20,000 nucleotides of DNA from an uncultured virus (IMG/VR IMGVR_UViG_3300047319_000709) (lineage: Duplodnaviria > Heunggongvirae > Uroviricota > Caudoviricetes). A program made the translations under genes and the position numbers. Below the pieces are notes generated by a model, which saw only the letters and a program-made list of their open reading frames with translations, was not told where the DNA came from and did not search any database. The stretch lies in the IMG/VR virus record IMGVR_UViG_3300047319_000709; one strand, given 5' to 3'. Below are positions 2,547-18,298 of the stretch, in pieces. The stretch's first letter is position 1; every line of letters starts with the position of its first letter.

Positions 2547-3962
2547 ATGAGCACAACGTCTATTCCACTGATAATGACGACGGCAGGGCCGCAGGCGACT
2601 CCCGTGGCGACGCTGTACGACACCCTGATCAATTATGTTGCCAATCAGGTTCCCGGCTACACGGCTAACCTTCCCGGCTCTCTGATCGACGATGTCGCGG
2701 GCACCGATACCGGCGCGCTCGTCGCGATCGATCAGGCGCGAGTTGATGCGATCAACAGCGTCAGTCCATATGGTGCCAATGCTTTTGTGCTGGCCCAACT
2801 CGGCGCTCAATTCGGGATCGCTCCAGGAGTGGGCGCAAACGGCAGTGTGTATGTGCAGTTCGCTGGTCCCGCTGGATACGTGTTCCAGAAAGGCTTCGTC
2901 GTGGGTGACGGGACCAATCAGTACGCACTTCAGGATGGTGGTGTCATCCAGGCCAACGGACTAAGCCCGCTCCTTTTTGCGGTAGCGACGACTAGCGGTA
3001 GCTTCGCTATTCCGGCCAACACCGTTAATCAGTTGGTGACGTCGGTTCCAAGCGCTTATGCAGTCACGGTTACGAACCCGGAGGCCGGAACTGCTGCAAC
3101 AACTACACAGAGCGTGCCGGACTATCGCGCGCAGGTGTTACAGGCAGGGTTGGTAGCAGCTACTGGAACGCCCGCTTACCTTAAGACTCTGCTTTACAAA
3201 ATCACGGGCGTTCAACAGCAACTAGTTTCGATTAACGCAGTTTCAGGCGGTTGGCAGGTCATCTGCGGAGGCGGTGATGCCTACGCCGTTGCGAACGCAA
3301 TTCTTCAGGGTGCCGGCGACATAGCACTGCTAAAGGGATCGCAATTGTCGATCACGACAATGACCGCAGCCAACCCGGTCGTCGTCACGACCAACCTGAA
3401 TCATGGATACGTCGCGGGCGGCACGGTTACAGTGGCGGGGGCTACGCCAAGCGCATACAACGGCACCTATACGATCGCCTCGGTCACGCCAACAACGATC
3501 ACGACGACGACTAACGGCAGCGGATTTGGTGCATATGTCGGTGGTGCCACGCTCAGTCCGAATCCTCGAAATGTGACGGTGTCCCTGTTCCAGAATCCCG
3601 ATACGTATTCGATAACCTTCGTCAATCCTCCGCAGCAAGTTGTGACAGTAGCGGTGACGTGGAATACGACTCTGCCCAACTTCACGGCAGGAACGTCGGT
3701 CAACCAGTTGGCAGCTCCAGCGCTCCAGTCATACATCAACTCGATCTACGTCGGGCAGCCGATCAACGAACTCGAGATGACGGCGGTGTTTCAGAGTGCG
3801 GTTTCTTCAGTTATCGCCGCGTCCAACATAACCACATTGCAGTTTGCAGTGACCATCAACGGTGTTCCGGCGTCCCCCGCAGCCGGCACCAGCATTATTG
3901 CCGGAGATGTTGAGGGCTACTTCTCTGCGAGTGCAACTGCGATCACGGTAACTCAAGGATAA
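2547..3962 (+). CDS. Baseplate J/gp47-like protein
   Basis: 471 aa. PGYTANLPGSLIDD, VQFAGPAGYVFQKGFVVGDG and QSVPDYRAQV are typical of J-like wedge proteins, and the gene position fits. Confidence 0.85.
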   Translation: MSTTSIPLIMTTAGPQATPVATLYDTLINYVANQVPGYTANLPGSLIDDVAGTDTGALVAIDQARVDAINSVSPYGANAFVLAQLGAQFGIAPGVGANGSVYVQFAGPAGYVFQKGFVVGDGTNQYALQDGGVIQANGLSPLLFAVATTSGSFAIPANTVNQLVTSVPSAYAVTVTNPEAGTAATTTQSVPDYRAQVLQAGLVAATGTPAYLKTLLYKITGVQQQLVSINAVSGGWQVICGGGDAYAVANAILQGAGDIALLKGSQLSITTMTAANPVVVTTNLNHGYVAGGTVTVAGATPSAYNGTYTIASVTPTTITTTTNGSGFGAYVGGATLSPNPRNVTVSLFQNPDTYSITFVNPPQQVVTVAVTWNTTLPNFTAGTSVNQLAAPALQSYINSIYVGQPINELEMTAVFQSAVSSVIAASNITTLQFAVTINGVPASPAAGTSIIAGDVEGYFSASATAITVTQG

Positions 3963-5818: not shown

Positions 5819-7564
5819 ATGAAGAAAATCATCATCGCGGCGCTGTTTGCGCCGCTGGCGGCGCTCGCCCAGACTTACCCTTCACCCACGTTCAACAGTA
5901 TTACGCTTCAAAATCCGTTGACGCCGGCCAACGGTGGAACCGGCGTCGCGAACTCCGGGACGATCACGCTTGGAGGAAGCTTTTCGACCACTGGCGGTAA
6001 CCCGCTTGTGCTCAATACGACAGCTCCCACCAATATCACGTTGCCGACCAGCGGTACCCTTCTGAACAGTTCCAGTGGCGCTACCGCAGGAGCTAACAGT
6101 AACATTACCTCGCTTTCCGGCCTGACGACGCCGCTGTCTGTCTCCCAAGGTGGAACGGGTTCGTCAACAGCGACTGGATCTGGTTCGGCAGTCCTGGCGA
6201 CCAGTCCTACGCTAGTCACCCCCAACTTGGGTACGCCTTCCGCGGCTACACTGACGAACGCCACGGGACTTCCCGTGTCGACCGGCATATCCGGTCTTGG
6301 AACCGGCGTGGCGGCGGCGCTCGCCAATGCAGTGACGGGCAGTGGTAGTCCCGTTCTGGCAACGTCCCCCACGCTTTCCAATGCGATTGTCGGGACGCAA
6401 TCTGCCGGCAACAACAGTACGCTCGCGGCGAGCACGGGGTTTGTCGCTGCTCACGCTCCTTGCCCTTCCATCCTCGACTACGGCGGCAATAACGGCGGAG
6501 TCGTATCGAACAATGCCGCATGGACGAATGCGGTGGCCGCGCAATCGACGGGCAACGTGTGTGTATTTTTTCCGCAAGGCACGTATTACTTCGCATCAAG
6601 CATCGGATATACGTTCCCGAACACCAACCCCAATTCGATAACCATTAAAGGCGTCGCGGCTGACTCGTCGATTCTGAAGTTTAACGCCACGTCATTCGGG
6701 ATATCCATCGCAGCAAACGGTCCGTTTTCCGGTATCCACATCAGAGATCTATCAGTCACCACAACCGCATCAACGCCGACCGGTGTTGCAATCAACCTGG
6801 CGCAGCAGCAGAGCACCATCGCCAATCCGGCCAACTCCGCTCTCTCGGATATCACAAATGTGACGACCCGCGGCGCTGACGGCTACGTTGTTACTGACGG
6901 GTGGTCGAATGGTGTAAATGTCGCGAGCGTATCGAACATCAACTTCACGAACCTCACTACGATCGGACCCTCAACCGCATCGTACGGAGTCATCCTGAAC
7001 GGCACGTCGACCGCTTTGGGCGTCGTGTACAACTTTCAGGGCTGTACCTTCAACTATCTTGGCATTGGCCTTTACTACGCGGCCTATGTGCAAGGAGTCA
7101 CTGTCAACCAGAGCAACTTCACTGGCGACACCAACGGGATCGTCGTCCCGACTGGTCAGGCAGGCCTCGACCAGTTGAGCGTGACGAATAGTCAGTTCAA
7201 CACCTACAACAACGGCATCCTTACCCAGTCGAACGTTGGCGTCATCATGATCGCCAACAATTTCTTTCTCGTCCAGAACAACAGCAACGGGATTTCGTTG
7301 CAGAACTACAGCGCATTCAGCATCATCGGTAACACGTTCAACCCTGCCGTTGCATCTCCGACTGGTACTCGCGGCATATACATCGACACCTGGGCGTCAA
7401 GCGCCGGTGTGATTACGGCTAATGCGATTCAGGAAATGACAACGGGCATCCTCCTCGGGTCGGGCTCCAAGTCTGTCAATGTGCAATCGAATGTCTACTT
7501 CGCTAACACGACCAACATTTCGAACAGCGGTACAGGCAATACGCTCGGCGGCGGCTCTCAATAA
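5819..7564 (+). CDS. Tailspike-like protein (fibre-like N-half plus right-handed beta-helix, pectate-lyase-like) with a predicted signal peptide
   Basis: MKKIIIAALFAPLAALA|QT. SILDYGG...NNAAW...VFFPQGTY..ITIKG is the usual beta-helix entry motif, followed by Asn/Gly/Ile-rich rungs. Confidence 0.8.
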   Translation: MKKIIIAALFAPLAALAQTYPSPTFNSITLQNPLTPANGGTGVANSGTITLGGSFSTTGGNPLVLNTTAPTNITLPTSGTLLNSSSGATAGANSNITSLSGLTTPLSVSQGGTGSSTATGSGSAVLATSPTLVTPNLGTPSAATLTNATGLPVSTGISGLGTGVAAALANAVTGSGSPVLATSPTLSNAIVGTQSAGNNSTLAASTGFVAAHAPCPSILDYGGNNGGVVSNNAAWTNAVAAQSTGNVCVFFPQGTYYFASSIGYTFPNTNPNSITIKGVAADSSILKFNATSFGISIAANGPFSGIHIRDLSVTTTASTPTGVAINLAQQQSTIANPANSALSDITNVTTRGADGYVVTDGWSNGVNVASVSNINFTNLTTIGPSTASYGVILNGTSTALGVVYNFQGCTFNYLGIGLYYAAYVQGVTVNQSNFTGDTNGIVVPTGQAGLDQLSVTNSQFNTYNNGILTQSNVGVIMIANNFFLVQNNSNGISLQNYSAFSIIGNTFNPAVASPTGTRGIYIDTWASSAGVITANAIQEMTTGILLGSGSKSVNVQSNVYFANTTNISNSGTGNTLGGGSQ

Positions 7565-7565
7565 G

Positions 7566-8774
7566 TCACGGCTGCCCCGTCGTGACTCCAGTACCTGGAT
7601 GAACGTCTGATGCCCGGTTGAGCCGCGTAATCGCGGCTTTTCCGATTGAGATACCGACCCGTTCAATCGCCGAGAACGTTGCAACCGACATTGCGACGGT
7701 GGTGACATACATGAAGGCGCAGGTGATCCAGAATGCAGAATTGTTTCCGAGAGCATAGGAAACAATAGCGGGACGGGTCATCACCATCGTAATGACGAGG
7801 CTGTGAAGCAGATACACGCTGTAGCTCATGTTACCCAAGCGATGCGCGCCCCGCGTTTGAAGCACTCCGAAGATTGACGTTCCGGAAACTATCATCATGA
7901 AAAATCCACCGAGCAGCAACGTGCCAACCGGCGAGTAGATGATGTCTGGGACACGAAACGCGGCGACGATCAAGGCGCAAGCGATGATGGACCGTATTGC
8001 TCCATCTCCTTTGAGGGCCGGTCGCGTGCGCATGATTGATGATGCGAGCATCCCGCACAGAAATTCGGCAAGAAACGACCTGAACGGCTCCGCGATCAGA
8101 CCGTCGACTGCCAGAACAAGAAACAGTGCTGATGCCGTCAATGCGACCGGACGTCCGAGGCGAGCAAATATAGACAATATCGGTAAGCTTGCGTAGAACA
8201 GCCACTCATAACGCAAGCTCCACACAGGTCCCACTACAGACATCGCAGCATCCATGTTCAAAAAAGGCGTTGGATTCTTGACGACCCCGAGTGCGAGCCA
8301 TTGGCCAATTTGAAAGACAGTTTGCTTGAACGGTTGGTCGATCTCAAAGTGGACGCGGCACAAAACCACTGCGAAGTACGACGCAATCAGGAAAAGATAC
8401 AGTGGATAGATCCTGAAGAAACGGTTGACATATAACTCCGCCCAGTTCACGGAATCGGCTTTAGCAAGAAGGCGACTCCAGAACAGGTAGCCGGTAATCA
8501 TGAAGAATATAGCTACGGCTGCGGGCCCAAGAGACATATAAAAATGGGAAGGTGCAGCCACTCCAAACTTCGCGCCATATCCATGCAGCACGAAATGATG
8601 GAATGCAACGGCTGTTGCAAGGATCCCGCGCAGGCCGTCGATAGAATCTAGTCGGTGCGCAAATACAGTCGGACTGACGTCCAGAAACCGGAGGAATCGC
8701 CCGGAAAGCGCGACCACAACCAGGCCGACAATGGCCATCATGGGCCATACCGAAAAAATGGATATATCAGGCAC
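7566..8774 (-). CDS. Acyltransferase_3 family (OafA/Oac-like) O-acetyltransferase
   Basis: RLDSIDGLRG, FFMITGY, RFFRIYP, WSLRYEWLFY and SYSVYLLH motifs; many TM segments. Confidence 0.92.
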   Translation of the reverse strand: MPDISIFSVWPMMAIVGLVVVALSGRFLRFLDVSPTVFAHRLDSIDGLRGILATAVAFHHFVLHGYGAKFGVAAPSHFYMSLGPAAVAIFFMITGYLFWSRLLAKADSVNWAELYVNRFFRIYPLYLFLIASYFAVVLCRVHFEIDQPFKQTVFQIGQWLALGVVKNPTPFLNMDAAMSVVGPVWSLRYEWLFYASLPILSIFARLGRPVALTASALFLVLAVDGLIAEPFRSFLAEFLCGMLASSIMRTRPALKGDGAIRSIIACALIVAAFRVPDIIYSPVGTLLLGGFFMMIVSGTSIFGVLQTRGAHRLGNMSYSVYLLHSLVITMVMTRPAIVSYALGNNSAFWITCAFMYVTTVAMSVATFSAIERVGISIGKAAITRLNRASDVHPGTGVTTGQP

Positions 8775-12367: not shown

Positions 12368-12913
12368 ATGACCGCACAAGACACGCATGAGACGCATCGG
12401 ACTCTGACCGAAGACGTCTTTTATCCTGGCCATGAGCCCCGCACCGAATCCGCCATCTTCCGCGCTAGCAAACACGAACTCAAAGCCGAAGGCGGCTATG
12501 TGTGCGCCGTGTGCGGAGACGATGAGAAGGTCGAGTCGCATCACCGATTTTTCGAGTGGGCGTACAGCCACGCCGTCGACTTCGCCTGGATTAGATCGGT
12601 CGCACTCAACCAGACCGACGTCATGCACTCGCACAAGTTGGGCCGCGTGGTGCCGATCCCGAAAAAGCATCCGGTCTGGGACCTGATCCGTTTGACGCAG
12701 GGCTTCGATTGGGAATCGTTCGATCCGGCCAAGCCCGAAACATTTGTGGACTCGATCTACAACCAGTTACCCCTCTGCGAGCTTCATCACCGCGGCAAGG
12801 GTCATGGACGCCACGAAGAAAGCGATCCAGTTTGGAGCGTCCAAGCGTTTCTGGTCCCCGGCTTTGTCTACTCACCCGATGAACTGAAGTCACTCCACAA
12901 GGAGCAAGCATGA
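12368..12913 (+). CDS. Hypothetical HNH-like zinc-binding protein
   Basis: CAVCG...ESHH...LCELHHRG, with a long insertion between the motif halves. Confidence 0.6.
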   Translation: MTAQDTHETHRTLTEDVFYPGHEPRTESAIFRASKHELKAEGGYVCAVCGDDEKVESHHRFFEWAYSHAVDFAWIRSVALNQTDVMHSHKLGRVVPIPKKHPVWDLIRLTQGFDWESFDPAKPETFVDSIYNQLPLCELHHRGKGHGRHEESDPVWSVQAFLVPGFVYSPDELKSLHKEQA

Positions 12914-14588: not shown

Positions 14589-14882
14589 TCATCCCGCCTC
14601 ATACGGCGGCGCATCCTTAAGCCACTCCAGAATCTCCGGTCGCACCGAAAACTTCGGCTCTTTCTTCCAGTCCGCCAAGGCATCGGCCCACTGCTCGAAC
14701 TCGTGCTCGGTGAAGTCGAACTCTTCTTCGACCCGTCCGCAGCCCTCATCGCGCAGAAACGCATACACGACCTTGTGCCCGTCCCAGTAGGCTATGGCGA
14801 AGTCCGTGATGTCGGCGGAAGTGCCGGGCGGCATCGTCGGAAGCTGCTCGGTAAGCATCTGGTGAAGTTCGTCGTGCGTCAT
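14589..14882 (-). CDS. Hypothetical acidic protein
   Basis: ATG at 14882 (MTHDELHQ) preceded by a GGAGG RBS. Confidence 0.7.
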   Translation of the reverse strand: MTHDELHQMLTEQLPTMPPGTSADITDFAIAYWDGHKVVYAFLRDEGCGRVEEEFDFTEHEFEQWADALADWKKEPKFSVRPEILEWLKDAPPYEAG

Positions 14883-14899
14883 ACTTCCTCCATGAGTGG

Positions 14900-15529
14900 T
14901 CACTTCCTGCCCCAGCCCAAAGCCGCCGGCCGCCCATACCCTTGGTACTTGATCTTAAGCCAATCCCTCGATCTTCCGCGCTGATACGTTGAGTCCATCC
15001 GCTTGGCGATCATCCCTTCAAGGCCAAGTTCTTTGACGTGCTCAAAGACAAGCTTTCCTTCGTCCTCAATCCCGCTCGCGTAGATCAGCATATTCGAATT
15101 GTCGAACGATTTGCGAAGATGGAGTTTGCGCTCGGTGAGAGGCAGGGAGCGAATGTCGGCGCCGTCAATCGATAGCGCATCGAATACATAGAGCCGGGCC
15201 GGATCAGACTTCGCCGCGGCGCGGACATTCTTCGGCGTCTTCGTGACCGCGCGCTGTCGGAGCCTCTCGAAGTCGGATCGCCCGGTGTCATCGTCGACCG
15301 TCAACTCGGCGTCCCACACGAAGTCGCCGGGCACATTTTCGACCGCCTGCGCGACCTCAGGAAAAGATCCGTTGAACATGTTGCCGTTGCGGCTCAAAAG
15401 TTTCACCTGCTCGCCTTCCTTCACGACCAGGCAGCGGAAGCCGTCGTACTTGAGTTCAAACAGCCAGTCAGGATCGGAGAATGGTCGCGGGTGCAGAGTC
15501 GCCAGCATCAAATCCGAGGCGTCAATCAC
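14900..15529 (-). CDS. ATP-dependent DNA ligase, adenylation domain only (LigD/LigC-like)
   Basis: Motif I ELKYDGFR, III WDAEL, IIIa YVFDAL, IV EGMIAK, V WLKIK. Start is GTG at 15529 or ATG at 15508. Confidence 0.9.
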   Translation of the reverse strand: MIDASDLMLATLHPRPFSDPDWLFELKYDGFRCLVVKEGEQVKLLSRNGNMFNGSFPEVAQAVENVPGDFVWDAELTVDDDTGRSDFERLRQRAVTKTPKNVRAAAKSDPARLYVFDALSIDGADIRSLPLTERKLHLRKSFDNSNMLIYASGIEDEGKLVFEHVKELGLEGMIAKRMDSTYQRGRSRDWLKIKYQGYGRPAALGWGRK

Positions 15530-15710
15530 GGTAGCGAGACGTCCAGGCCCACGCGAGCGCCAGCTTGGCCCATGCATCATCCTTCGGGCAGCCGGTCACG
15601 TCACACAGATGGGCAAAGTCCTCGTCAAGGGTATGCCCGTGCTCGTTCCGCTTGGTCCGGTCGGGCAGGACGACTTCCAGAATCGCTTCAGGGTTGCGGT
15701 ACTCGAACAT
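15522..15710 (-). CDS. Small hypothetical protein
   Basis: MFEYRNPE... with a GAGGAGG RBS; its stop overlaps the ligase GTG start region. Confidence 0.7.
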   Translation of the reverse strand: MFEYRNPEAILEVVLPDRTKRNEHGHTLDEDFAHLCDVTGCPKDDAWAKLALAWAWTSRYRD

Positions 15711-15714
15711 GGCG

Positions 15715-15927
15715 TCACCTCCTCGTTCGCGGACCAGCATGAATCGGGCCTTCGTCGTCGGCGCCGATCGCGCGAACCCAGTGCACGCACCCGCGATCCG
15801 GCATCGCCTGCACATACGGCCTGCCTTCGTGCATGCAAAGGATGACTGAACCGCCCGCGCGCCATTCCGTGAAGTGTTCGCAGCCGATGCAGTGGCGATC
15901 CGTACCTTGTTCGTTGAAGAGGCCCAT
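15715..15927 (-). CDS. Small Cys-rich (putative Zn-binding) protein
   Basis: CIGCEHF...LC...GCVHW; tight operon spacing. Confidence 0.7.
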   Translation of the reverse strand: MGLFNEQGTDRHCIGCEHFTEWRAGGSVILCMHEGRPYVQAMPDRGCVHWVRAIGADDEGPIHAGPRTRR

Positions 15928-15944
15928 CGGACCATTCTAGCTTC

Positions 15945-16469
15945 CTACGACGCCTCGCTCATCATTTTGCCGATCGCCTTAGGGACTAGGATGTTGTACT
16001 TCGGCATGAATTTGGCGATGTACTGGGTTTCAAGTCGCGTCAGGTCTTTCGGCCTGCACTCAATGATGTGGTAGGAGTCGAATTTCTTACTGCGCTCTGC
16101 GAAGTGCGTCCCTATCCGTCCATGGCAGTTTGTCGACTGCCCCACATACACCACGCGCCCTTCGCTCATTAGCAGATAGACGCCACACAACTGCCGGATG
16201 GGCTGCGCAATGACATTAAGTTCGGCCTCAGAAAGCAGGTCCTTTTCCTCGACAAACGCTGCCGATCTAACAAACCGCTTCGCAACATCTCCTTTTTTGA
16301 ATATCCCGTTGGTGATGTTCTTCTCGGTGACGAAAGCGATAGCCGATTCCCGATCGCTTCCCAGACTCTTCATCCGGCCGGTACGGGGATCGCGATAGTG
16401 GTATCGGTCTGCCGTTGCATTTACGAACAGGTTTGGAGGCAAGATCTTTCTCAGTTCTTCGATCGTCAT
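15945..16469 (-). CDS. Fusion of a lambda-integrase-type arm-DNA-binding domain and a GIY-YIG nuclease
   Basis: N-terminal LPPNLF...YHYRDPRTGRMKSLGSDRESAI. C-terminal GVY-x9-YVG, R (RIGTH), E (LETQYI) and N (PKYN). Confidence 0.85.
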   Translation of the reverse strand: MTIEELRKILPPNLFVNATADRYHYRDPRTGRMKSLGSDRESAIAFVTEKNITNGIFKKGDVAKRFVRSAAFVEEKDLLSEAELNVIAQPIRQLCGVYLLMSEGRVVYVGQSTNCHGRIGTHFAERSKKFDSYHIIECRPKDLTRLETQYIAKFMPKYNILVPKAIGKMMSEAS

Positions 16470-16527
16470 AACACTCGTGATATTGTTTTTTGAGCAAATC
16501 CGCCGCGGCGGCGACGTTCAAATTCAA

Positions 16528-16786
16528 GGCGTAGGTTAAAGCGTAGGTTCCGTGACCGAGGCCCGTCACATATACACTCTGCACATCCATCATCAAATTA
16601 CTGCAAGGTTTTTCGGAAGTCTCGCAAACCTACGCCAGTATTGAGTTGTCGGCCTGAAAGCCTTTGCTGTAGAGGCTAACTACGATTCTACCTCAAATAA
16701 TAATGGGCTCCTGATCTGACATGAGCCATCGACAAAGATAGTGTGTCGGCGTAGGATTTCGCATCCTCCTACGCCAAACCTACGCT
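16528..16786. other. Putative attP with arm-type integrase-binding repeats (consensus GCGTAGGWT)
   Basis: Forward copies: GGCGTAGGTT at 16528, AGCGTAGGTT at 16540, GGCGTAGGAT at 16748. Inverted copies: AACCTACGCC at 16627, TCCTACGCC at 16767, AACCTACGCT at 16777. Non-coding and immediately upstream of int. Confidence 0.8.
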
Positions 16787-16788
16787 AG

Positions 16789-18057
16789 ATGGCCTTTGAC
16801 GCCCGCAAAATAAAGCTCATGGCGCCCGGAACGCACGTCAATATCGACGGCTTCCCAGGCCTCCGAATCGAGGCTACGACGGCCAAACGAAGCTGGACAT
16901 ACCGCTACAAGTCGCCCATTGACGGGCGCATGAAACAGACAAAGCTTGGCGAATGGCCTGCGATGACCTACGCCTCCGCTATCGCAGCGTGGGAAGCAGC
17001 ACGAACTACGCGCAGCTCCGGCGTAGATATTTCCGCCGAAAAGCGTAGGAAAAGACGGGGCGAATCTGAGGTCAAGCCGCCATACAACGTCCGTGCTCTA
17101 TGCGAGGACTATATTGCGGGGCACATCGAACGGCACCGCGGGCCTACAGCCAGCGCGAACGCCATGCGCCTCATTCGGCGAGGCATCAAACCCATCGCCG
17201 ATCTCGCTCCAGACTCGATTACCCGCCAGCAGGCCTACGCACTGATAAGCGGCATGAGCGAATCCCCGACAATGGCTCTGCGGCTCCGGAGCGAACTTGG
17301 CGCTGCCTGGGATTTCGCTATGGACGCCGACAAGTTAGCCAGTTCCACGCCAAACTGGTGGCGCCAGATTATGCAGGGACGCATCAAGACAACTGGCCGC
17401 CTCCGCGCCGGCGAACGCACGAAAGAAAAGCGGGTGCTGAGCGACGACGAATTGGCAGAACTTCTTGTTTGGCTCCCGCACTCTCCGCAACTACTGCAGG
17501 ACGCGATCTCGCTCTACCTGTGGACCGGCACGCGCGGCGCCGAGATTATGGCGATTGAGGGTTCCGAAATCACGAAAGAGCGCGATGGCGTCTGGTGGAC
17601 AATTCCCAAAGCCAAGACTAAGAATGCCAACGTAGAAAGCGCGAACGATCACCGCGTGCCTTTGGTCGGAAGAGCGCTCGAAATTGTCGAACGCCGCAAG
17701 ACGCAGCATGGCTCGGGCTACCTGTTTCCGGCGAAGCGGGCCGAATCACATACGATTCAGAAAACGATCCAGGAGATGATTTACCGTTGCCAGCCCTACG
17801 GCAACGTCAAGAACCCATACCACACGCCGAAGTTGACGGTGACGCATTGGGCCTGCCACGACTTGCGTCGGACTGTCCGAACGATGCTAGCTAGACTGGG
17901 ATGCCCGCATGAGGTCGCCGAGGCGATCATCGGACACGTGTTGGGCGGGGTGGCCGGAGTGTACAACCGGCACCGCTACGACAATGAGCGCCGCGTATGG
18001 CTGACGAAACTGGACGTCGAGTTATGCCGCCTTGCTGGGCGGCGGCAGGACGCTTGA
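16789..18057 (+). CDS. int: Tyrosine integrase with a P4-like N-terminal arm-binding domain
   Basis: GLRIEAT...WTYRYK...KLGEWP arm domain. Catalytic motifs GTRGAE, HDLRR, IGH and GVYN. Confidence 0.95.
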   Translation: MAFDARKIKLMAPGTHVNIDGFPGLRIEATTAKRSWTYRYKSPIDGRMKQTKLGEWPAMTYASAIAAWEAARTTRSSGVDISAEKRRKRRGESEVKPPYNVRALCEDYIAGHIERHRGPTASANAMRLIRRGIKPIADLAPDSITRQQAYALISGMSESPTMALRLRSELGAAWDFAMDADKLASSTPNWWRQIMQGRIKTTGRLRAGERTKEKRVLSDDELAELLVWLPHSPQLLQDAISLYLWTGTRGAEIMAIEGSEITKERDGVWWTIPKAKTKNANVESANDHRVPLVGRALEIVERRKTQHGSGYLFPAKRAESHTIQKTIQEMIYRCQPYGNVKNPYHTPKLTVTHWACHDLRRTVRTMLARLGCPHEVAEAIIGHVLGGVAGVYNRHRYDNERRVWLTKLDVELCRLAGRRQDA

Positions 18058-18234
18058 GGCTGGGCGCGCTTCAGCCCACGCCTCAATCTCGCGAGCGAGC
18101 CAGCCGACTCGCTTACCCGTCAGGGCGCGAGGCTTCGGTAGATCTCCGGCGGCGACTAACCGTTTCACAGTCGCCGTCGAGAGCGACAACGACTGTGCGA
18201 CGCTCTGCAGGTCCAGGTAATAAACTGTATTCAT
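18022..18234 (-). CDS. AlpA-family excisionase / recombination directionality factor
   Basis: LSLSTATVKRLVAAGDLPKPRALTGKRVGWLAREIEAW; GGAGG RBS; convergent with int. Confidence 0.88.
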   Translation of the reverse strand: MNTVYYLDLQSVAQSLSLSTATVKRLVAAGDLPKPRALTGKRVGWLAREIEAWAEARPASSVLPPPSKAA

Positions 18235-18298
18235 GGTCTTTCCTCCCTCCGAAACCATTCCCGTTGTGTGACTTCAATTACACGTTTCGCGGCTTCCG

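Follow-up and report, generated by a model that had tools for sequence, protein, structure and literature searches.

A lambda-integrase-type arm domain fused to a GIY-YIG nuclease beside the integrase gene of an uncultured tailed phage: a candidate homing-endonuclease-like gene at an att/int exchange boundary

Phage homing endonuclease genes (HEGs) encode proteins with a DNA-binding terminus and a nuclease terminus and lie at the boundaries of genetic exchange, as described by Barth, Dunham and Seed (PMC10448857). In ICP1 Odn (gp88), an N-terminal domain that is 42% identical to the satellite RepA_N is combined with a GIY-YIG-superfamily C-terminus, and the protein cleaves the satellite origin; the activity needs the catalytic Glu, and the protein is believed to descend from the homing-endonuclease genes of phages (Barth, Nguyen & Seed 2021, PMC8263062). 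HNH-AP2 proteins are a further group of putative homing endonucleases (Wuitschick et al. 2004, as cited in PMC1564403). Here we describe a gene at 15945-16469(-) of a 20,000-nucleotide stretch (the window) of the IMG/VR virus record IMGVR_UViG_3300047319_000709, from an uncultured member of the Caudoviricetes, which joins an arm-binding domain of the lambda integrase (Int) type to a GIY-YIG nuclease. The gene sits at the junction between an integration module (presumed phage attachment site attP, and int) and an accessory operon encoding a Cys-rich open reading frame (ORF) and a DNA ligase. We read it as a freestanding, homing-endonuclease-like GIY-YIG nuclease that would use an integrase-type anchor at an att/int exchange boundary, and we consider the chances of this reading to be about even.

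The gene was confirmed as an ORF of 174 amino acids (aa) with an ATG start, and its homologues were 55-72% identical. In a Pfam search, the protein matched Arm-DNA-bind_1 (PF09003) at residues 8-52, encoded at 16314-16448(-), with an expect value (E) of 1.4e-9 and 38.3 bits against a gathering score of 22, and GIY-YIG (PF01541) at residues 95-159, encoded at 15993-16187(-), with an E of 8e-7 and 29.7 bits against a gathering score of 22.6. Residues 55-94, encoded at 16188-16307(-), form a linker between the two. A phmmer search of PDB sequences aligned residues 7-52 to residues 9-53 of the lambda Int N-terminal domain (1kjk_A, E 4.2e-6, ~46% identity), while UvrC GIY-YIG domains were matched more weakly in the same search (E 0.07-0.7). 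The PF00589 recombinase domain was not found in the protein by Pfam, and the chain stops at residue 174, after the GIY-YIG domain. Seven residues, Y98, Y108, G110, R118, H122, E147 and N159, were invariant in all 44 aligned fused homologues; going by work on I-TevI and UvrC, we take the Tyr of 'GIY', the Tyr of 'YIG', the Arg, the helix-1 His/Tyr, the Glu and the Asn to be the catalytic set of this fold.

An AlphaFold2 model built on the alignment of the 44 fused homologues had a mean predicted local distance difference test score (pLDDT) of 88.7 and a predicted template modelling score (pTM) of 0.57. Its N-domain was a three-stranded sheet with a helix (strands 14-17, 22-26 and 33-37, helix 40-54) and its C-domain had the GIY-YIG fold (b96-102, b105-112, a115-125, b132-137 and a140-154). 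The mutual placement of the two domains is not fixed because the pTM was 0.57, and model confidence was low around residues 60-70 of the ~40-residue linker, where the block of residues 61-70 had a pLDDT of 55. Using Foldseek, we matched the N-domain to 2wcc, the lambda IntDBD on P'2 arm DNA, with a root-mean-square deviation (rmsd) of 1.4 Å over 49 columns at 45% identity, and to 1kjk with a template modelling (TM) score of 0.83; the overall rmsd range for the lambda Int N-domain was 1.1-1.4 Å. The C-domain was matched to the UvrC GIY-YIG domain 1yd6_D (rmsd 2.0 Å, 78 columns) and also to I-TevI, T4 EndoII and Eco29kI, with a target-normalised TM score of 0.57 for the I-TevI catalytic domain 1ln0. 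A preliminary description of this locus had proposed exactly this architecture, with the catalytic residues apparently intact, and Pfam, phmmer and Foldseek now agree on each half while the residues in question are those that the family holds invariant.

The likeness to Odn lies in an N-terminal anchor borrowed from the site-specific DNA-binding protein of a mobile element and followed by a C-terminal nuclease of the GIY-YIG superfamily. The Odn anchor, however, is RepA_N and its target a replication origin, whereas the anchor here is an integrase arm domain; the Odn nuclease is of the T5orf172 type without the helix-1 His/Tyr, whereas the window nuclease is a classical PF01541 domain with H122 and was not matched by PF10544 (T5orf172) in Pfam at E <= 1; and cleavage has been shown for Odn, whereas it is a prediction for the window protein. 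The freestanding GIY-YIG homing endonucleases of T-even phages (I-TevI, Seg) likewise have a linker-tethered catalytic domain and a separate DNA-binding module, and their genes likewise lie between conserved genes and are present or absent among relatives. The 'beads on a string' layout of I-TevI is shared, but the domain order is reversed, the anchor of the window protein being N-terminal. The T-even enzymes carry NUMOD, zinc-finger or helix-turn-helix (HTH) modules in place of the integrase arm domain, and the window differs further in that its host is a temperate phage, its site is an att/int junction and homing is only proposed. In the HNH-AP2 proteins (phrog_99), too, a nuclease is paired with a small DNA-binding domain, a beta-sheet fold of the AP2/integrase-N kind (the AP2 and integrase-N folds being related), and one such HNH gene occupies exactly the same slot in a relative of the window (L098, 2931-3707), but the catalytic domain there is HNH instead of GIY-YIG and the domain order is opposite. 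With the N-domain of lambda Int (1kjk, 2wcc) the protein shares its fold along with the sequence identity given above, but it has neither the core-binding and recombinase domains nor the basic N-terminal tail of that enzyme. Our literature search found no paper on a fusion of GIY-YIG with an integrase arm domain, and the word 'integrase' does not occur in the 2006 survey of the GIY-YIG superfamily (PMC1564403). The principle is already known and the combination appears to be new; the preliminary description, which knew of no such system, thus holds for the fusion but not for the principle, which has analogues in Odn and HNH-AP2.

In the gene call supplied with the record (P0001, 142 aa) the start is placed at Met33, so that the arm domain loses its first two strands; the homologues back the 174-aa reading. 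With the stretch 16374-16469(-) left out of P0001, the fusion is hidden from database annotation, in which only the GIY-YIG domain appears. An exhaustive HMMER search gave 4,050 proteins at E <= 0.001, 321 of them at E <= 1e-10. We scanned the 150 top HMMER hits (P0002, P0004-P0006 and P0018-P0163) with Pfam, leaving out P0001 as the truncated own call, P0003 as a deletion variant and P0007-P0017 as short hits of a word search. An N-terminal Arm-DNA-bind_1 together with GIY-YIG was found in 44 of the 150 at E <= 0.01, and 42 reached the gathering score; the fusion is a phage family and not a one-off. The same GIY-YIG subfamily also occurred with other N-termini, namely Arm-DNA-bind_4 (P0163), HTH_17 (P0078 and P0081) or nothing recognisable, and Arm-DNA-bind_3 was found in P0138, where it is C-terminal, and below the cut-off in P0155. 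The nearest named relative was a hypothetical protein on the chromosome of Paraburkholderia youngii (P0002, 72% identity). In P0003, from another assembly, residues 1 to ~128 of the nuclease are joined in frame to the C-terminus of the ORF at 14589-14903; through this in-frame deletion it has lost E147, N159, the Cys-rich ORF and the ligase, and we regard it as a decayed copy of the nuclease gene. A contig scan with the single protein returned only 15 distant matches, confined to the GIY-YIG domain (29-42% identity, residues ~70-160), which offered no context for the fusion. Nine cultured-phage records matched, all annotated as hypothetical, and none of the nine covered 80% of the protein; the best, from Pseudomonas phage BL4, was a different fusion that adjoins the small terminase gene. 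In an Atlas search, the only matches were generic GIY-YIG or hypothetical clusters, none of them scoring above 0.84.

We then scanned IMG/VR with a nine-row alignment and obtained 267 relatives, from which 80 loci were kept, including 17 full-length fusions with near-duplicates among them (L020-L024, L026/27, L030/31 and L032/33). An integrase was adjacent in 16 of the 17 as judged by a home-made integrase hidden Markov model (HMM), for which ten of these integrases had served as input, the submitted ones being confirmed by Pfam; among the 13 fusion loci annotated with Pfam, 12 had a tyrosine integrase directly upstream. The integrase was on the same strand, with a gap of no more than 17 bp or an overlap, in L020-L024, L025, L026/27, L030/31 and L032/33, and L029 had one ORF between the integrase and the nuclease gene. 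A divergent integrase at a distance of 60-320 bp was found in L018, L019, L080 and the window. In the seventeenth locus, L017, a host tRNA-Leu(CAG) at 30-116 was followed by the nuclease gene from 582, 465 bp apart, and the nuclease gene is there the outermost prophage gene, beside the attachment site. The preliminary description asked whether homologues lie beside att/int loci, and the integrase in 16 of the 17 fusion loci and the host tRNA in the other bear this out. Several prophage contigs ended 0-379 bp past the nuclease gene. We rejected L021 and L024 as a source of att junctions, since these trimmed contigs end exactly at the nuclease stop codon. Among the 63 other loci, with GIY-YIG alone or with other N-termini, the integrase was adjacent in 14, and all 11 submitted integrases of these 14 loci were confirmed by Pfam.

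In the window itself the nuclease gene and the integrase are divergent with 319 bp between them. The integrase, at 16789-18057(+), is a tyrosine recombinase (PF00589, E 1.1e-10) with a P4-like arm domain, Arm-DNA-bind_3 (PF13356, E 3.1e-9), so that both the divergent arrangement and the different arm class of the resident Int are as first described. Of the intervening DNA, the 59 bp next to the nuclease gene (16470-16528) are specific to its cassette, with an imperfect 18-nt palindrome at 16489-16522 and no alignment to the relatives L098 and L099, and the stretch 16529-16785 carries GCGTAGGWT repeats at 16529, 16541, 16627 (inverted), 16749 and 16777 (inverted), with a variant at 16767-16775. 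All five occurrences of GCGTAGGWT in the window fall inside 16529-16785, against 0.17 expected, and we infer that the 319-bp gap holds attP with the arm sites of the integrase.

The relatives of the window integrase in IMG/VR, L098 (87% aa identity), L099 (82%) and L100 (63%), allowed a comparison of the slot occupied by the nuclease gene. DNA homology with L098 and L099 covered the ligase gene (~14914-15598), resumed at 16528, at the first arm repeat, and ran through int, and the stretch between the ligase and 16528, including the nuclease gene, had no counterpart in either; the nuclease protein gave no tblastn match in the L098, L099 and L100 loci. In L098 this slot was occupied, with the strand unchanged, by a 258-aa HNH endonuclease at 2931-3707(-) (PF13392, E 2.3e-14; phrog_99, E 5e-55; I-HmuI 1u3e, E 9e-4), whereas L099 had no nuclease and its Cys-rich ORF was followed directly by the att region. 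L025 kept the Cys-rich ORF (61%, tblastn), the ligase (83% aa) and the next ORF (62%), but its GIY-YIG gene was only 38% identical and its integrase was in the other orientation, on the same strand as the GIY-YIG gene. Four states of one slot were thus found between flanks conserved in all of them: the window has a clade-A GIY-YIG gene, L025 a 38% identical one and L098 an HNH gene, and the slot of L099 holds no nuclease. Since the ligase persists in the nuclease-free L099, it does not depend on the GIY-YIG gene. All of the GCGTAGG repeats were invariant in a three-way alignment with L098 and L099, both of which are without this nuclease gene. By eye, the C-terminus of the L098 HNH protein looked AP2-like, with no Pfam AP2 match at E <= 0.05.

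The origin of the anchor was addressed by comparison with the neighbouring integrases. In the same-strand loci with a complete integrase, 8 of 8 integrases also carried Arm-DNA-bind_1. The N-terminus of the GIY-YIG protein resembled that of the neighbouring integrase in L073 (58% over 45 residues, E 3e-13), L082 (48% over 61 residues, E 3e-14) and L067 (53% over 45 residues, E 1e-13), and the N-terminus of the L073 protein also matched the C-terminal part of phrog_99 (E 2e-4). When each anchor of 20 non-redundant neighbour pairs was compared by BLASTP with the 20 integrases, a comparison in which cognate and class signals are confounded, the cognate integrase was the top match in six pairs (L020, L026, L029, L063, L067 and L082) and second or third in two more. 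As a general rule, that the anchor is a recent copy of the neighbouring integrase was rejected, with identities of 31-58% and the cognate best in 6 of 20. The window belongs to a mismatched minority, together with L018, L019 and L080, whose integrases are likewise of another arm class than the nuclease. Its N-domain was closest to the Arm-DNA-bind_1 domain of the L020 integrase (37.5%, E 5e-6). A similarity to the resident Arm-DNA-bind_3 region (41% over 27 residues, with a shared 'GRMK') may only reflect the distant kinship of the two arm-domain families.

Our reading of the gene as a homing endonuclease draws on the modular anchor, the strict conservation of the catalytic residues, the presence, absence and replacement in the slot, and the decayed copy. 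An integrase-type arm-binding domain would serve as the DNA anchor of a site-directed GIY-YIG endonuclease, whose flexible linker of ~40 residues would let the C-terminal domain cut at some distance from the anchor. Integrase-type anchors throughout the family, often of the class of the neighbour, suggest that the bound sites are arm-type repeats, sequences that a rival phage presumably could not change freely. The protein would bind the repeated lambda-type arm sites of a co-resident or co-infecting relative without the gene and break the DNA beside attP, and repair from the nuclease-bearing genome would then copy the gene together with the adjoining integration module. Insertion next to the bound site would protect the carrier from its own enzyme. 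Among the three roles offered in the preliminary description (cutting the attP of competitors, homing for the integration module and regulation of its own att), homing is the one favoured by the slot comparison, and the other two are less favoured.

Several observations weigh against this reading. The protein had no NUMOD or other classical DNA-binding module of HEGs in Pfam, and no binding or cleavage site turned up for the nuclease. Most family members have a basic, MGRPRK-like N-terminal tail, which is missing in P0002, P0003, P0005, P0006 and the window protein, the last starting MTIEELRKILPPNLF with no such tail ahead of LPPNLY. Lambda Int has a basic N-terminal tail of this kind, and the tail contacts DNA; DNA binding by the window protein could therefore be altered. 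The resident integrase is of the Arm-DNA-bind_3 class, and the match of the nuclease N-domain to it was marginal (E 0.014 in a single comparison, E 0.25 in the search of 20 sequences). No lambda-type integrase was found in the record, which is rated ~50% complete, so that the GCGTAGGWT repeats need not be sites of the nuclease. In the comparison of 20 pairs, the cognate integrase was not the best match in 14 and gave no match at all in six, and within the 'MASI..WRA' class the cognate and non-cognate identities overlapped at 35-59%, an overlap which argues for class matching with a modest cognate excess and not for recent duplication. The family is sparse, as none of 401 genomes sampled from one phylum matched the profile at E <= 1e-10. 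Finally, the slot polymorphism also fits ordinary turnover of morons.

The main rival explanation, which does not exclude homing, is an Odn-like role against competitors, in which an integrase-mimicking anchor would direct the nuclease to the attP, attL or attR of a rival and block its integration, excision or replication, with the benefit going to the carrier phage and not to the spread of the gene itself. It shares its domain order and logic with ICP1 Odn, and the neighbours of the gene, at the edge of the prophage, are of the moron type (such as acyltransferase, lipase and glycosyltransferase). In the window, L018, L019 and L080, where nuclease and integrase differ in arm class, the nuclease would be aimed at foreign arm sites. 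However, nuclease and integrase share Arm-DNA-bind_1 in all eight loci where a complete integrase lies on the same strand, and several pairs are mutual best matches, which poses a problem of self-targeting for a pure weapon. PADLOC gave only partial, weak matches to the protein, confined to its GIY-YIG domain (PDC-S14, E 2e-5; UzuA, E 4e-4), and no candidate target element was found. When longer proteins with the same 60 N-terminal residues, and thus similar integrase N-termini, were sought by a word search, none of 13 candidates reached E <= 0.001; this null carries little weight, since a domain of 45 aa is too short to become significant in the database used. We consider an anti-competitor role rather improbable, at something like one chance among several.

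Two further explanations seem to us quite unlikely, and to a similar degree. The protein might be an accessory factor of the phage's own recombination that occupies the arm sites of attP, attL and attR as a competitor or architectural partner of Int, with the GIY-YIG domain nicking DNA or merely binding it. The location beside int, often with translational coupling or overlap, the shared arm class in same-strand loci and N-termini 48-58% identical to the neighbouring integrase (L073, L082 and L067) would all suit such a factor. Against it, the invariance of the catalytic set in 44 sequences favours catalysis over mere binding, close relatives have integration modules that function in the absence of the gene (L099) or next to an HNH gene unrelated to it (L098), and the arm classes of nuclease and integrase differ in the window; directionality factors are also not known to carry a nuclease domain, although no search aimed at this was made. 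Alternatively, the gene might encode a nuclease for general prophage defence or against host DNA, without att specificity, in which case the anchor would be interchangeable and the position a moron hot spot. Morons are indeed grouped at this end of the prophage, members of the GIY-YIG subfamily are found both without a partner domain and with HTH_17 or other N-termini, and 49 of the 63 other IMG/VR loci had no integrase in the stretch covered. Nevertheless, there are at least three kinds of integrase-type anchor, several of which match the neighbouring integrase best, and the integrase adjacency of 16/17 is far above that of a random position in a ~40-kb phage, by an expectation that we inferred and did not compute.

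Integration modules are among the parts of temperate-phage genomes that are most often exchanged, and the determinants of the exchange boundaries are poorly understood. If the homing-endonuclease reading is true, a nuclease family at the int/att junction would be a concrete and testable driver of integration-module exchange, and the principle of Odn, a nuclease with the recognition domain of a rival, would be extended from replication origins to attachment sites. More tentatively, and with somewhat doubtful prospects, GIY-YIG and HNH genes of temperate phages might together form an 'att-homing' class that has repeatedly captured the arm domain of the neighbouring integrase, binds arm sites, cuts beside attP and spreads itself and the linked integration module into related phages. 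A rival phage would lose integration by mutating its arm sites, and the well-known mosaicism of int/att modules would then have a direct mechanism. In practical terms, the fusions join a compact monomeric nuclease to a small beta-sheet reader of ~10-bp repeats.

In the two closest IMG/VR homologues, L017 and L018, the sequence TGGCACC-N4-TGGCACC was found at 520-544 and 5923-5947, respectively, with an 11-bp spacing and ~40-60 bp before the start codon. It resembles a sigma-54 -24/-12 element or else a tandem binding site. This sequence does not occur in the window, where the imperfect palindrome at 16489-16522 is found instead. ARAGORN also called a tRNA-Trp at 728-818 of L017, inside the GIY-YIG coding sequence; this call is probably false, while the tRNA-Leu at the start of the contig seems to be real.

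The window is part of a linear IMG/VR record of 26.5 kb that contains one integrase and one Arm-DNA-bind_1 domain in total. From the att region, a row of minus-strand genes runs through the nuclease, the 70-aa Cys-rich ORF, the ATP-dependent DNA ligase and two small ORFs. The Cys-rich ORF (15715-15927(-)), directly downstream of the nuclease gene, had no family match and is conserved in L025 and L099. The ligase (14900-15580(-)) consists of the nucleotidyltransferase domain only (PF01068, E 1.3e-29); TIGR02779 matched it with an E of 7.6e-45 but below its cut-off, and the LigD-like NCBIfam matches were all below their cut-offs. After the integrase lies an excisionase-like regulator of the AlpA/HTH_17 type at 18022-18258(-) (PF05930, E 7.4e-8; phrog_597 and phrog_66). 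Predicted promoter and terminator sites were no more numerous in 15800-16900 than in shuffled sequence, and PADLOC returned nothing for the neighbouring genes but a weak JAB match (E 0.004).

To the left of the nuclease operon, the window encodes tail-fibre and baseplate genes, an O-acetyltransferase, an endolysin and other late genes. The O-acetyltransferase-like gene (7566-8774(-); phrog_3333, E 1.9e-45), surrounded by tail-fibre genes but on the other strand, is likely a moron for lysogenic conversion. After the endolysin, the gene at 12368-12913(+) matched phrog_8048, which is labelled HNH endonuclease (E 1.1e-25), and may be a second nuclease-type gene of the window.

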